DNA of 64,000 nt from Bdellovibrionota bacterium (lineage in GTDB: Bacteria > Bdellovibrionota_C > UBA2361 > CAKMMH01). The stretch lies in contig JAXFOK010000005.1 of assembly GCA_034180415.1 (NCBI GenBank), positions 65,093 through 129,092 of the forward strand, given 5' to 3'. Made by a program: the position numbers and the translations under genes. Under the pieces are notes generated by a model. It was not told the DNA's origin, made no database searches, and saw only the letters and a list, made by a program, of their open reading frames with translations. Position 1 is the first letter of the stretch, and every line of letters begins with the position of its first letter. Positions 10,458-60,925 of this stretch are shown here, piece by piece.

Positions 10458-10489
10458 GCGATGCAATCTTTGATGCCTCGCCTGTTTTA
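10458..10489 (+). terminator. hairpin plus U-tract immediately after paralog A stop
   Basis: GGCGATGCA-atctttga-TGCCTCGCC stem-loop followed by TGTTTTA. Confidence 0.4.
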
Positions 10490-10544
10490 GCAGCTAGGCG
10501 ACTGAACTACAGTCAATAAAAGTGAAGTGTTTTATTTATAAATC

Positions 10545-10880
10545 TAGTATGCAACAACCCCCCGTAGGGGGTTAATGAAGCGAAGCGGAGCCAGGATGGG
10601 GGGAGCTCGCATAAAAAATGCGACAGCATTTTTTAATGTGCGATTCAACCCATTATAGCAAATGCCCCCCCACACCACGACCCCTTTAGGGATCGACTAA
10701 CAAAATTAAATCGCAATCAATTTAGTAAACATCCCAAATAGAATATCCATTTATATTAGTATAGACAAAACCCCTGTAAAGGGGTTATTAAAGCGAAACG
10801 AGCGTTAGCGAAGTGAAGCGGCGCTAGGGCGTAGTGGCCTAAAGCACAAGCGCTAGCTTGTGCACTCACCACTACGTTAG
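10545..10880. repeat. GC-rich island of REP-like palindromic repeats (CCCC-n-TA-n-GGGG hairpins, each followed by an AGCGAAGCG-type motif) plus a nested compound stem-loop
   Basis: aaCCCCCCGTAGGGGGtt (10556-10573), aaCCCCTGTAAAGGGGtt (10769-10787) and gaCCCCTTTAGGGatc (10679-10694). Each of the first two is followed by ttaatgAAGCGAAGCGgagc / ttattaAAGCGAAACGAGCG. Nested hairpin GTAGTGG-cctaaa-GCACAAGC-gcta-GCTTGTGC-actca-CCACTAC (10831-10875). Composition is visibly GC-richer than the flanks. Confidence 0.5.
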
Positions 10881-10974
10881 AGCTACATATTGTGCATGCT
10901 ACTTGGTTGTCATACAATTATATTATATACTAATTTAAAACTAATTTTAATTAATTCAAGGAATATATGGATTT

Positions 10975-25235: not shown

Positions 25236-25408
25236 AGCGATGCATCCAAATATACTTCGTTATTTGAGAGAGATGACTTTCCTCGCTGCATTACCAGTAC
25301 AGCTCCGGAGATGTCCTCTCAAATGCCTAATTAACGCCTCATCAATCATCATTTAAGGTTGATACGTTTTTTCTTTTAGTTATTATCATCGCAAGGGAAG
25401 AAGCGAAA

Positions 25409-26129
25409 TATGACATTTTTTAGTATGAAAATGCGTGCGAGTCGTACAGATGGCGAAACGACTTTTCATGTATCTGGTGCCGAAAAGATACTTTCTGAAC
25501 CAGAGCTTGTCGTGAATGCAAGGGCATTGATTGAACGGGCACTTCATCATGCAAAGGGAGATGCTGATTATATTTAGTTGAAAATAGAAAAAGCTACACC
25601 GGAAAGTATAGAATATATTGATGCACTACCTGTTCATACTATTGAAGTGGATGATGTAGCATAAGGGCACGAGGCGATTTTGTCACTCTTAATGAAGCTT
25701 GGATTGAAAAATGGTGCTGACATTATGAAAAAATTTCATGAAACTTATGCAATGCGTGGTGCAATGTTATTAGATGTTGACTCTTTGGATCGTTTAGAGC
25801 CAGACCACGCTCGTGGAATACGTGCCACTTATATGGATTCAGAGCACTCTCTATTACGTCCTGTTGATGATGGTAAAAATCATTTTCAATAAGCCATTGT
25901 CCTTGCTAGCAAGGTGTCAAATACACCACACATTATAGCTGAAATCTGTATTTTCGATGATCCTGACTACGTGACAGGTTATGTCGCTTCAAAGCAGACA
26001 GGTTATGTGCGTATAACGAAGCTTAAGGAAATAGGTAATCCAGACGATGGGCGTATTTTCCTTTATCGCGGTCAAAGAGAAGAGGTAAAAATACTATCAA
26101 ATATCTTGAGAAGTAAATTGTCTTAGTAA
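25409..26129 (+). pseudogene. bioW: 6-carboxyhexanoate-CoA ligase (pimeloyl-CoA synthetase) BioW, full length in one frame but interrupted by three in-frame stop codons
   Basis: Single-frame translation MTFFSMKMRASRTDGETTFHVSGAEKIL...KGDADYI*LKIEK...VDDVA*GHEAIL...GKNHFQ*AIVLASKVSNTPHIIAEICIFDDPDYVTGYVASKQTGYVRITKLKEIGNPDDGRIFLY... aligns end to end with Bacillus-type BioW (YSVRMRAS...HISGGERL; AVVAELCWSDDPDYITGYVAGKKMGYQRITAMKEYG..GCRVFF). Internal stops: TAG ending at 25576, TAA at 25661 and TAA at 25893. The region is GC-richer than the genome background. Confidence 0.7.
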
Positions 26130-26132
26130 AAA

Positions 26133-26586
26133 ACGCACCAGATATACAAATTTCAGAAACTGCATACAGATCCGTGGCAGGTTCTTGCTAACAATTTAGA
26201 GCAACTAAAAAATGCAGGACTTTACCGAAGTATTACGACTATCGACTCGCCTCAAAGTGTTCATGTAACTATAGGTGGCAAGAATTTCTTAATGCTTGCT
26301 TCTAATTCCTACCTTGGATTGACGGATGAACCTCGTGTCTGCCATGCTGCATCTGATGCGACGTTACGATTTCGGTGCAGGGGCTGGTGGGTCACGGTTC
26401 ACTACAGAGAGTTTGCAACTTTATGACGAGCTTGAAAAGGCTCTCTCAGATTTTAAAGGAACTGAAGTAACACTACTTTTTAACACGGGTTATATGGCAA
26501 ATGTTGGTATATTGTCAGCCCTTAAATTAAATCGTAAATACCCTGTAATTTCTCGAATCAAATGCACATTTGTGCAAAAATTTTGA
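26133..26586 (+). pseudogene. bioF: 8-amino-7-oxononanoate synthase BioF, N-terminal about 150 aa only, with one frameshift and a premature stop
   Basis: Continues in the bioW frame: ...WQVLANNLEQLKNAGLYRSITTIDSPQSVHVTIGGKNFLMLASNSYLGLTDEPRV. After a frameshift near 26338 it reads HLMRRYDFGAGAGGSRFTTESLQLYDELEKALSDFKGTEVTLLFNTGYMANVGILSAL, which matches the BioF blocks NYLGL...FGTGSSGSRLTTGN...LEKKIA.FK.TEAALLFSSGYLANVGVLSSL. The frame ends at 26586 and native AT-rich sequence resumes. Confidence 0.65.
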
Positions 26587-30129: not shown

Positions 30130-31620
30130 GTGGAAGAGAAAAAATATTACACATATCAACGCGAAAATAATATAGCTAGTAATAATTCTATAAACCAAAA
30201 TATACCTCCTTTATTTACAAAAAATTTAGAGCTTAGACAAGCGTTAAATTCGATGTATGCAGCTTGGATGCCTTTAAATGAAGTAGTTTATAATTCGATA
30301 AAAAGTAAAGTTATCCAAAGAGTATATGATAATAATAGAGGAAAGTTCATTCAGGATATTTCTGCGGATTTTACAATTTTATCTTTAATCTTAAGAGAAA
30401 TGCCTAGTATTATTACTTCAAGAGAGAGCGTAGATCCTGTAAAATTTTTAAAATCGTGCGATATTGAACAGTTTAAAAATATCTTTTTAAAAGATGCAAG
30501 TGATTATTCGTTTCATTCATTTGATGACATTAATTATTCTCAAGCTGTAATGTATAAATATACTGCAAATTCTTCTCAGATTTCACAAAAGTATGCAATC
30601 CTTAATAATCAAGATCCATTATGGATTTACACGATATCAGTTTTAAGAGGACTTGCAAACTGCTTGCTTTCTTGGAACTATCCTCGTTTGTTTAGTAGGG
30701 GATTAAAAGTACAAGCTAATCAAGAAGGTACTCTTGATGATTTCATCGAAAGAGCATTAGGGTTTTCTCCAAATGATTTAATCGTTGAGCTTATTACGAC
30801 TTGGAATTTAAATGATAATGTAAGAGATTTAGTTGATAATACAAGAGCCGCTAACAATAAGGATACTTTAGCATATAAATGTATATACGACTCTGAAATG
30901 GTAGCAAAACTTCATGAACCAAAAGTTTTTCCTGAAGTTATTAATAAACTTGATGATTATGAAGACGAAATTTCAGGTACAAAAAATATATCAAAAGTTA
31001 TAAGTAAAGAAGTAACTAAAGTTTGCGAATACTATGAAAAATATGCACCTGAAATTTTTGATTTAACTATGTCTTTAAAAGATAAAATTAAAGAAGCAAT
31101 TTTAGCTCATGCTGATAATAAGCTTCGTAAAAATACTTTCATTTTCCAGTGTGATGATAGTATTTTTAATAGTTTTAAAAAAGTTTATGTAAACATGTCT
31201 GATGATAAATTTTCAAAGAAAGCTTTAGAAATTTTAAGATACGAAACTATAAATAAAGCAGGTTTTGAAAATGGTTGCTTATATGTTTATAACGAGCAAA
31301 AAAATACACTAATTCCAACATTAAAAATTGGTGAAAGAGAGTTATTTAAATATAGAGAAGTTTTATGTGAAGAAAATATTTTATCTTCTAGTATGATTTC
31401 TGATGCACTTAAATGTACTGTCCCCATAAGAAATTTTGGAGTCTCCGTTACTGGTAAATACGTAAGTTATATCTGTGCTTCATTTGGTAATTCGTTTAAA
31501 AGAGGAGTACTTTATCTAGAATATTCAAATGATGATGAAGATATGGATGGCGAAATGATGTTACGTTTTAAAGCTATTCTAAAGTGTCTAAATGAGTGTT
31601 TAGGCTTTAGCGTAAATTAA
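30130..31620 (+). CDS. hypothetical protein, 496 aa (possible HDOD-like N-terminus and GAF-like C-terminus, weak)
   Basis: Long ORF, soluble, no firm motif. Confidence 0.4.
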   Translation: MEEKKYYTYQRENNIASNNSINQNIPPLFTKNLELRQALNSMYAAWMPLNEVVYNSIKSKVIQRVYDNNRGKFIQDISADFTILSLILREMPSIITSRESVDPVKFLKSCDIEQFKNIFLKDASDYSFHSFDDINYSQAVMYKYTANSSQISQKYAILNNQDPLWIYTISVLRGLANCLLSWNYPRLFSRGLKVQANQEGTLDDFIERALGFSPNDLIVELITTWNLNDNVRDLVDNTRAANNKDTLAYKCIYDSEMVAKLHEPKVFPEVINKLDDYEDEISGTKNISKVISKEVTKVCEYYEKYAPEIFDLTMSLKDKIKEAILAHADNKLRKNTFIFQCDDSIFNSFKKVYVNMSDDKFSKKALEILRYETINKAGFENGCLYVYNEQKNTLIPTLKIGERELFKYREVLCEENILSSSMISDALKCTVPIRNFGVSVTGKYVSYICASFGNSFKRGVLYLEYSNDDEDMDGEMMLRFKAILKCLNECLGFSVN

Positions 31621-32040
31621 AACTTTATCCCCATTGCATCTTTTACTTCTATAAGTGTTTCTTTTGCGATTTCTCTTGCACGTTTTGTGCCATCGTTTAA
31701 GATATCCCATACTTCGTTTGTATGAATTTCATAGTGTTTTTTTCGCTCTCTTATTTCTCTTAATGACTCATTAAGTTTACACGCAAATTTTGCTTTGCAA
31801 TCTCTACATCCAATACTTGCACTTTCACTTCATGTCTTATTTCATCTAGCATTTCTAGCGCAAATATTTTCCAATATGTATACGCAAAACATTATTTCTG
31901 CATATTTTTTAATTTGATCGGTAAAAACTTACCAATTTGCGATAATAAAATAGCAATCATAGGTATCCTGTATTTTTTAACGAACCAATATAATGTCCGA
32001 TGTGAAGCTGCCTGTCGCCCTATCTCCTGTTAATATCCTT
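31617..32040 (-). pseudogene. trpS: tryptophanyl-tRNA synthetase remnant: C-terminal about 60 aa intact in frame, N-terminal block in fragments, middle of the gene missing
   Basis: Minus-strand translation of 31617-31800 gives GCRDCKAKFACKLNESLREIRERKKHYEIHTNEVWDILNDGTKRAREIAKETLIEVKDAMGIKF*, which matches the TrpRS C-terminal blocks (G.C.DCK..l.e.v...l.PIRER...pe.v..iL.eGaeKAr.iA.eTl.eVk.AmG). The 31900-32030 minus strand gives ILTGDRATGSFTSDIILVR*...DCYFIIANW*VFTDQ, resembling the TrpRS N-terminal class-I region (..cyFfiaDlHAiT..) with stops. The total span of about 420 bp is less than the roughly 1 kb expected. Confidence 0.5.
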
Positions 32041-32564
32041 TTTTTACTTGCATTATTTGAATTTTCCTTAAGATTGGATTATATCGATACCCTAACAATA
32101 TTTAAGGGATTTTTATTTAATAACTAAAAAATTTTCAAATAATTTTCCTAATTTATTGACATTTATCACTAAAAAATGTATTTTTTATCACCATGAGATG
32201 TCATTAGATTTACTTTTAGGGTTTTTAAACTCTAAGATGTTATAAGATGCTCTGCTAAAAGTCATCCTAGATTTTTATGTTATCCATCTTTAAAAGTAAA
32301 TTAATCATTGATAAAAATTTGTTGTACTTATTTATTTTTTTATAATTAGGTGCTAATCTTATATAACTTTAATTTTAAATAAAATTTTTTGAATGAAAAA
32401 TTTTTGAATGAAAAATTTTTAAAGTATCCTGTTTTAAAGATTACTTAATAGCTTATAAATGTAGGTATTTTTTAAAACTTGGAGTAATAGTTTTTTGTAT
32501 TTTTTTATTTTATTTATAGAAAAATTGTATCAAACTTGTTATAAATTTATGGAGATGAGGCGTT

Positions 32565-32939
32565 ATGCCAACGATTAATCAGTTAGTAAGAAAAGGAAGA
32601 CAAGATAAAGTTAAGAAAACAAGTGTTCCAGCATTAAAAGCTTGTCCTCAGAGAAGAGGAGTTTGTACTCGTGTTTATACTCAAACTCCAAAGAAACCAA
32701 ACTCAGCTTTAAGAAAAGTTGCTCGTATTCGTTTAACAACTGGAATGGAAGTAACTAGCTATATTCCAGGTATTGGACATAATCTTCAAGAGCACTCAGT
32801 TGTATTAGTTAGAGGTGGTCGTGTTAAAGACTTACCTGGTGTTCGTTACCACATAATAAGAGGTAAACTTGAAACTCATGGTGTTCAAGATAGAAAGAAG
32901 AGCCGTTCTAAGTACGGTTCTAAGAGACCTAAAAAATAA
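32565..32939 (+). CDS. rpsL: 30S ribosomal protein S12
   Basis: [57 protein letters not shown]... is near-identical to the bacterial S12 consensus. Confidence 0.97.
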
Positions 32940-60193: not shown

Positions 60194-60299
60194 AATAAAG
60201 GAACTTTAAAAAAAATATTATGGACAACCTTTAATATTCTAATAAAAGAGAAGAATTTTAACAATTAATCTTGTTTCTTAATCCTTTAAACATCCAATA

Positions 60300-60545
60300 G
60301 GAACTATTAAAATACCATCTTTATTTTTGTATGCGTACGTTCCAACGCCTGAAAAAAAATCATTTTAAATGATGGCTCTTTCATTTTTTCAGTATCTAAA
60401 ATTTTAGATAATTTTTGAAGTGTTTCAATGCCTTCGTTAATTCGTGTATCCCCACCAAGTTTTATTTCTATTAAACCATATTGCCCGTTTTGTAAATGAA
60501 TAATTGCATCACATTCAAGGTCGTTTCATTAAAATATTGTTAACA
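60300..60545 (-). pseudogene. possible remnant of an ATPase/DUF4143-like gene (fragment only)
   Basis: Minus-strand translation IHLQNGQYGLIEIKLGGDTRINEGIETLQKLSKILDTEKMKEPSFKMIF is flanked by stops in all frames; there is no intact ORF. Confidence 0.2.
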
Positions 60546-60689
60546 ATTCTTGGTTTATAATCCATAAATTTAAGTTTTCTTATAATAATTAAATGACTTT
60601 TTAAAGATTATTGTAACAACATGAAACATATATAAATTAATATGTTAGCTTTGATTTTAATAAACATTATAAGTTTAGGTAGATTTTTC

Positions 60690-60775
60690 ATTATAGGTTT
60701 TGACGGATTTTTAATATAAGTTTTGGCGGAATTTTGATATAGGTTTTTGCAAAATTTAATAATATATAAACTATG
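60690..60775. repeat. three tandem imperfect direct repeats of about 25 nt in a non-coding stretch
   Basis: ataGGTTTTGACGGATTTTTAATATAAG / TTTTGGCGGAATTTTGATATAG / GTTTTTGCAAAATTTAATAATATATAA; also GTGGCTAGA x2 at 60860-60885. Confidence 0.35.
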
Positions 60776-60925
60776 AGTTTATGTTATCTGACTTCGGCGA
60801 TTTTTGAGAGAAATTAATGTAAAATTTGGTAATATGTTGAAAATAATATAGATTTTCTAAAAAGCAAAGTGGCTAGAAAAAGTGGCTAGAGGCTTATGCT
60901 TTCGGGTTATATGTTCAATATGAAT

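Follow-up and report, generated by a model that had tools for sequence, protein, structure and literature searches.

A degraded trpS gene beside rpsL

Here we describe a decayed gene for tryptophanyl-tRNA synthetase (TrpRS), trpS, in a 64 kb stretch of DNA from an uncultured Bdellovibrionota bacterium (contig JAXFOK010000005.1 of assembly GCA_034180415.1; hereafter the window). Exact matches to proteins of the window belong to metagenome-assembled genomes listed by NCBI as 'Bdellovibrionota bacterium' or 'Pseudomonadota bacterium' (MDY60897xx, locus tags SPJ04_; MDD74730xx, GCA_028724725.1). The relic lies on the minus strand and runs over 437 bp, from an ATG at 32053-32051 to its original TAA at 31619-31617. 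Convergent with it on the plus strand is a gene for a 496-residue protein (30130-31620), the stop codon of which (TAA, 31618-20) overlaps that of the relic within the palindrome TTAA at 31617-31620. On its other side the relic faces rpsL, which starts at 32565, and the 944 bp from 31621 to 32564 are gene-free. A first-pass annotation, made from the letters and their translations, had described a trpS remnant of about 420 bp on this strand, overlapping the stop of the plus-strand gene in a region of about 940 bp beside rpsL. It was right on each of these points; the remnant is here refined to 31617-32053, its 5' end lying 13 bp beyond the position 32040 given there.

Lesions were called by base-level DNA alignment to the trpS gene of locus L013, the closest intact ortholog. 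Seven are present: three 1-nucleotide (nt) deletions, an 11-nt deletion, a CAA-to-TAA change, a TAA at a deletion junction and a 539-nt internal deletion (Table 1). The relic retains codons ~1-58 and ~239-329 of a TrpRS of 329-334 residues, and the missing 539 nt account for the internal deletion that had been noticed at first pass. Translation of minus-strand positions 31560-32130 in three frames yields GCRDCKAKFACKLNESLREIRERKKHYE...ILNDGTKRAREIAKETLIEVKDAMGIKF* and DCYFIIANW*VFTDQ (asterisks denote stop codons), which are the peptides quoted in that annotation for a clean C terminus and a stop-interrupted N terminus.

The N-terminal part reads M-Q-V-K-(K)-RILTGDRATG / QLHIGHYIGSLK / QDTYDCYFIIANW*VFTDQIKKYAEI, and its first lesion shifts the frame directly after the start codon. 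The class I HIGH motif (CAC ATC GGA CAT, 32004-31993) is encoded in a second minus-strand frame (LHIGHYIGSLKN / QLHIGHYIGSLKN), where two frameshifts separate it from the start codon and stops come after it. The large deletion takes most of the Rossmann catalytic domain together with the KMSKS motif (HKMSKS); no KMSKS-like motif was found in any open reading frame (ORF) of the window. At the junction, near 31894/31893, the sequence reads GAA ATA A/TG TTT (the slash marks the junction); an in-frame TAA thus arises immediately ahead of Cys239. The C-terminal part reads CFAYTYWKIFALEMLDEIRHE(C)ESASIGCRDCKAKFACKLNESLREIRERKKHYEIHTNEVWDILNDGTKRAREIAKETLIEVKDAMGIKF*. The 1-nt deletion within it (lesion 6) is polymorphic: it is present in the window and at loci L001 and L004, and absent from L002 and most public variants. 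The relic has neither HIGH within an open frame nor KMSKS or a complete Rossmann domain and, as read from its sequence, cannot encode an active enzyme.

Table 1. Features of the trpS relic and the adjoining rpsL leader (window positions unless a locus is named)
Feature	Position	Strand	Basis
Whole trpS pseudogene, 437 bp	31617..32053	minus	82% nucleotide identity to L013 trpS; TIGR00233, 70 bits
N-terminal relic, codons ~1-58	31894..32053	minus	PF00579; tblastn vs L009 TrpRS
Lesion 1: 1-nt deletion in A7 run, codon 4	32039..32045	minus	gap at ortholog nt 11
Lesion 2: 1-nt deletion between GG and CAG, ortholog codon 15 (TG-Q-LH)	32005..32015	minus	gap at ortholog nt 45
Lesion 3: 11-nt deletion, codons N-R-I/V-R/K-L lost between SLK and QD	31965..31980	minus	gap at nt 84-94 vs L013 and L009
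Lesion 4: nonsense TAA for CAA (Gln46, ANW-Q-VFTD)	31929..31931	minus	CAA in 3/3 intact orthologs
Lesion 5: 539-nt deletion junction, ortholog nt 174-712, codons ~59-238	31883..31901	minus	alignment, tblastn
C-terminal relic (anticodon-binding domain), codons ~239-329	31617..31893	minus	tblastn 2e-32; TIGR00233 240-328
Lesion 6: 1-nt (T) deletion in Cys260 codon, CAT GAA [T]GT GAA	31821..31834	minus	alignment column 303; L013 alignment
C-x2-C relic (TGT AGA GAT TGC) of the putative [4Fe-4S] ligand motif C-x20-C-x6-C-x2-C of the intact orthologs	31797..31808	minus	P0065 aligned to 2g36
rpsL leader region	32150-32564; L005:8146-8539; L009:10319-10828; L013:154-640	plus (window); minus (L013)	sequence comparison

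The relic derives from a tryptophanyl-tRNA synthetase

The assignment to TrpRS made at first pass is borne out at the level of profiles, structures and DNA. The frame-joined conceptual protein matches Pfam PF00579 (tRNA-synt_1b) over model positions 5-54 (E = 1.3e-8), and a second frame-repaired version matches the trpS equivalog model TIGR00233 over positions 240-328 (E = 1.7e-19). The latter match scores 70.3 bits and fails the curated whole-protein cutoff of 176.75 bits. Among chains in the PDB, the relic matches the TrpRS structures 6ncr (4e-19) and 2g36 from Thermotoga maritima (7e-18), each in two stretches, ~residues 9-66 and 264-342, which flank the missing middle; TyrRS chains reach only E ~0.65-0.7. 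With the intact TrpRS of locus L009 as a tblastn query, the C-terminal part is recovered at 2e-32 (75-76% amino-acid identity) and the N-terminal part at 1e-14 (residues 5-58). At the nucleotide level, the relic is 82% identical to L013 trpS over 431 aligned bases.

No further TrpRS-like ORF was found in the window when its ORFs were searched by phmmer with an Escherichia coli TrpRS sequence and with TrpRS fragments; the relic is the sole match. Used as a query against 5.8 billion proteins, the frame-repaired relic matched relic ORFs and TrpRS fragments only, and no close intact homolog.

Intact trpS genes occupy the same position in relatives

The intact ortholog was found through homologs of the neighbouring 496-residue gene. 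One such homolog, at 62%, belongs to a Bdellovibrionota metagenome-assembled genome (GCA_050952645.1; loci L008/L009), in which the gene order is DnaK-DnaJ-...-SurA-518aa-...-trpS-rpsL-rpsG-fusA. The order from DnaK to the 518-residue gene, the homolog of the 496-residue one, is that of the window. There trpS is a PF00579 gene of 329 codons on the minus strand, head-to-head with rpsL and annotated by NCBI as tryptophan--tRNA ligase. At L013, trpS is likewise divergent from rpsL, the product of which (S12) is identical to that of the window at 51/52 of its first 52 residues. The TrpRS proteins of L009 (P0065) and L013 (P0066) are 85% identical to each other and score 266.9 and 269 bits on TIGR00233, both above 176.75. 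Between the window and L009, identity is 94% for S12, 92% for S7, 80% for DnaJ, 69% for SurA and ~62-65% for the 496-residue protein, and the window, L009 and the other compared loci are all ~30% G+C.

The relic is 79% identical to its ortholog at L013, 77% at L009 and 59% at L012, and the 496-residue homolog is ~62% identical at L009 and 57% at L011 (L011 and L012 come from one sample). The similarity of the relic to its orthologs hence ranks as that of the neighbouring gene does. In the more distant L012 (74% TrpRS identity), trpS lies elsewhere, near rpsM-rpsK-rpsD-rpoA. In the relative with 90% identity in the 496-residue protein (L005/L006), no trpS is left: the stretch corresponding to window positions 31623-32117 is replaced by an unrelated segment of 623 bp between flanks of 88-91% identity. 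A single locus in one clade is therefore seen with trpS intact (L009, L013), half-decayed (the window species) and erased (L005).

From these gene orders, we take trpS head-to-head with rpsL to be the shared ancestral arrangement of the group. Because L009 and L013 keep an intact trpS at that very position and in that orientation, synteny favours the relic being the ancestral, vertically inherited copy. The first-pass annotation had left two options, that an intact second copy exists elsewhere or that the remnant is what became of a duplicated or horizontally acquired gene; synteny speaks for the former, with the intact copy not located, and against the latter.

Two of these loci carry further material. 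At L009, three small extra genes separate the 518-residue gene from trpS; the interval L009:7632-9232 holds a 101-residue ORF, a small RDD-domain ORF and two adjacent RCC1/WD40_RLD-repeat ORFs, which may be one split gene. None has a counterpart in the window, and ~1.6 kb of content was therefore lost from, or never present in, the window lineage. The segment that replaces trpS in L005 (L005:7491-8113, also in L006) seems richer in G+C than the AT-rich sequence on either side. It contains two similar hairpins, heptamer arrays (CCTGATA and CCTGAAG) and 2.8 tandem copies of a 27-nt unit. No credible Rfam match was obtained for it, and one 27-nt repeat unit was missing from the window and all other loci.

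The relic is fixed and still decaying

Four assemblies made independently of one another (GCA_028724725.1 and the Logan assemblies of SRR25667260, SRR21357815 and SRR20662467) contain the relic at 99.5-99.9% identity, all with the large deletion, and because it is shared by these four it is not an assembly error. ORF fragments of 64-91 residues derived from it are called on more than 100 public contigs. Secondary lesions differ by strain: the commonest public allele ends ...REISK*, and others end ...KMQWG* after a frameshift. The relic is fixed yet still decaying in a population seen across many metagenomes.

Amino-acid changes unique to one sequence, at positions on which the other three agree, number 12 in the relic, 2 in L013 and 3 in L009; among the 12 are a Pro-to-Ala change within the PTG motif, a Pro-to-Leu change and Cys252-to-Met. 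A 53-residue core of the conceptual translation shows a mean pairwise amino-acid difference of 4.3% and 21% variable columns, against 0.5-1.3% and 2-4% for EF-G, SurA and the 496-residue protein from the same clusters. The relic is 3-9 times more variable than these neighbours, in a comparison that draws on lists of distinct cluster members, not on a population sample, and carries no synonymous-site control. The comparison is therefore supportive, not rigorous; taken with the unique changes and the strain-specific truncations, it shows that selective constraint on the relic is relaxed.

Four of the public calls (P0001, P0199, P0200 and P0202, on short Logan/ENA contigs) read the two in-frame TGA codons of the relic as tryptophan (…ARNARWNKTWSESAS…; window 31830-31880, minus strand). 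A code with TGA as Trp, prompted by P0001, was considered and rejected: the window uses the standard genetic code, its long genes run uninterrupted under code 11, and its 60 ORFs end in TAA (45), TAG (12) or TGA (3). The calls are almost certainly a gene-caller artefact, a code-4 model having been applied to short AT-rich contigs.

A putative [4Fe-4S] ligand motif in the lost enzyme

The alignment of the intact ortholog P0065 to 2g36 spans the full length (E = 2.9e-76) and places cysteines at all four [4Fe-4S] ligand positions (Cys239, Cys260, Cys267 and Cys270). The motif of T. maritima TrpRS is C-x22-C-x6-C-x2-C, with x21-24 in homologs, and in organisms with several TrpRS genes it occurs in one of them only (PMC2954223). 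The spacing in the ortholog is x20-x6-x2, its x20 comparing with the published x21-24. The relic keeps the codons for Cys239, Cys267 and Cys270; in the window a frameshift disrupts that for Cys260, which other strains keep intact. By its cysteine motif, the lost gene is putatively of the Fe-S type.

Tryptophan charging and alternative explanations

Tryptophan is present in the EF-G and S7 proteins of the window, and because these neighbouring essential genes use it, TrpRS is still needed. From this essentiality we infer that a functional trpS must exist, unlinked, elsewhere in the genome; most likely it encodes a TrpRS without the cluster that shares less than ~50% identity with the enzyme that was lost.

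We hold it to be highly probable that the relic is a non-functional, neutrally decaying pseudogene, the remnant of the ancestral trpS of this lineage. The ancestor would have had a TrpRS of ~330 residues with a [4Fe-4S]-type cysteine motif, encoded head-to-head with rpsL, a long AT-rich intergenic region lying between the two genes. Loss of trpS function in the Bdellovibrionota lineage of the window would have been followed by frameshifts, a nonsense codon and the 539-nt deletion of the catalytic core including KMSKS, and the relic would continue to gain lesions that differ between strains. It would have no present role, another trpS charging tRNA-Trp. What the relic is, its lesions, its presence in several assemblies, the intact orthologs at the corresponding position and the relaxed constraint are directly seen; the existence of that replacement, its kind and the order of these events are inferred parts of the scheme.

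Several points weigh against this account. The replacement was not found in the window; among the 120 relatives closest to the ancestral TrpRS (identity as low as 51%), none could be attributed to this species; and it was not among the best 80 loci of a scan of GTDB representatives, in which the L009 genome was the sole close relative found. Takeover by another copy is accordingly argued from TrpRS essentiality and nothing else. The ancestor may also have had two trpS genes, and the event would then be the loss of one paralog, not a displacement. The diversity comparison, as described above, adds support without rigour. No record was found of the protein at the left end of the window, contigs beyond its right end are short and hold no trpS, and a screen of TrpRS matches by amino-acid composition was uninformative.

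If the relic were a decayed duplicate or a horizontally acquired trpS, the original would always have been elsewhere. Organisms with two TrpRS genes, only one with the Fe-S motif, are documented (PMC2954223), and the location of trpS near rpsM-rpsK-rpsD-rpoA in L012 indicates that its position is not fixed across the wider clade. We nevertheless regard such an origin as unlikely, given the intact genes at the exact position and orientation beside rpsL in L009 and L013, the ranking of similarities shared with the neighbouring gene, and flanks that show no sign of a mobile element. An expressed product is less probable again. The C-terminal fragment would in that case be an anticodon-binding or Fe-S mini-protein of 64-91 residues starting MLDEIRHEC, and in many strains there is indeed an ATG-initiated ORF of 64-78 residues (P0185 on 56 contigs, P0186 on 24) that keeps three of the four ligand cysteines. 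However, the first of the ligand cysteines is missing from that ORF, neither a promoter nor a ribosome-binding site could be assigned to it, and it is broken by the 1-nt deletion in the window, L001 and L004 and truncated differently (REISK*, KMQWG*) in other strains. Its variability, 3-9 times that of the neighbouring proteins, also argues against a mini-protein, which we consider very improbable.

Bdellovibrionota include obligate predators, and a host- or prey-associated lineage might have no functional trpS and take TrpRS activity or charged tRNA-Trp from another cell. The low G+C content (29% in the window) would fit, as would the failure to find a replacement in the window, the best 120 relatives or the best 80 loci. 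Of the genome itself, the 64 kb window and short flanks were covered, so that non-detection says little, and the window has a normal gene complement at a coding density of 87%. Cellular organisms are not known to do without a TrpRS gene of their own, save for a few extremely reduced endosymbionts. A literature search on the ecology of the clade returned nothing specific. We give this explanation hardly any credence; displacement of an oxygen-sensitive [4Fe-4S] TrpRS by a cluster-free xenolog, with the loser caught mid-decay, is much more likely than the absence of any trpS. A sequencing or assembly artefact that conceals an intact gene is effectively refuted. One lesion does lie within an A7 homopolymer and the source is a metagenome-assembled genome, but the 539-nt deletion and other lesions recur unchanged in four samples that were assembled independently, short ORFs beginning past the junction are found on dozens of ENA and Logan contigs, and nonsense codons and an 11-nt deletion are atypical of sequencing errors.

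The rpsL leader and neighbouring features

Upstream of rpsL, four lineages share near-invariant blocks, although identity between their flanking proteins is only 62-90% (Table 1). They include a promoter-like TTGACA-17-TATTTT at window positions 32156-32184 and the blocks ACCATGAGATGTCATTAGATTTAC, GATGCTCTGCTAAAAGTCATCCTAGATTTTTATGTTATCCATCTT, AATTAGGTGCTAATCTT, ATCCTGTTTTAAAGATTACTT and GGAGTAATAGTTTTTTGTATTT, and the region looks like a conserved str-operon leader of ~400 nt. Neither a T-box nor any other Rfam family was detected on either strand of 31500-32700, even at E<=1, and RNAalifold on the four leader sequences gave almost no covariation; no structure is claimed. Within the leader, the window carries a 16-nt tandem duplication (32386-32421; TGAATGAAAAATTTTT, two copies) that is absent in L005, L009 and L013.

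The 496-residue protein is specific to this lineage or clade and has no Pfam domain above threshold. Its homologs are graded (90, 68, 62, 58 and 57% identity), it has only ~7 protein clusters among 5.8 billion clusters, and as a query against JGI metagenomes it gave no match. A weak HDOD similarity (E = 0.012) is accompanied by a 23%-identical homolog, P0064, that carries PF08668.

Further gene-free stretches of the window lie at 25357-26325 (969 bp), 10458-10974 (517 bp) and 60194-60925 (732 bp). The first of these follows dnaJ, at a place where L009 has a gene of 187 residues; tblastn with the L009 protein against the window detected no relic of it.

Significance and comparison with known systems

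Taken alone, the relic is one more ordinary bacterial pseudogene, of little weight. Annotation pipelines should mark it as a pseudogene rather than call ORF fragments of 64-91 residues. To the first-pass annotation, the analysis adds that the relic appears to be the ancestral gene still in its ancestral place, that its cysteine motif puts it putatively in the Fe-S type, and that it is fixed yet decaying. The locus offers a dated snapshot of aminoacyl-tRNA synthetase turnover, in its intact, half-decayed and erased states. If the replacement gene were identified, it would provide a clean example of the displacement of such an enzyme in a poorly sampled Bdellovibrionota group.

A close known counterpart is T. 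maritima TrpRS (PDB 2G36; PMC2954223), the ...TTASIGCVDCK... of which is nearly matched by ...ESASIGCRDCK... in the relic. The intact orthologs P0065 and P0066 align with it end to end, with cysteines at the four ligand positions. The orthologs differ in their spacing, C-x20-C-x6-C-x2-C in place of x22, and the window copy differs in being a pseudogene without a catalytic core, its second ligand codon frameshifted.

Deinococcus radiodurans is a bacterium with two TrpRS genes, and its TrpRS II is a functional auxiliary enzyme. That protein (PDB 1YI8/2A4M) is the best-scoring structure for the intact ortholog (5e-77); in contrast to the ortholog, it has no cysteines at the ligand positions of the alignment.

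As a class, the relic resembles unitary pseudogenes. It shares with them several lesions that disable the gene, relatives (L008/L009 and L013) with an intact ortholog in synteny, fast strain-specific decay and, in the sister lineage L005, complete erasure. It differs from them in that trpS function is normally essential, so that its loss implies a second gene.

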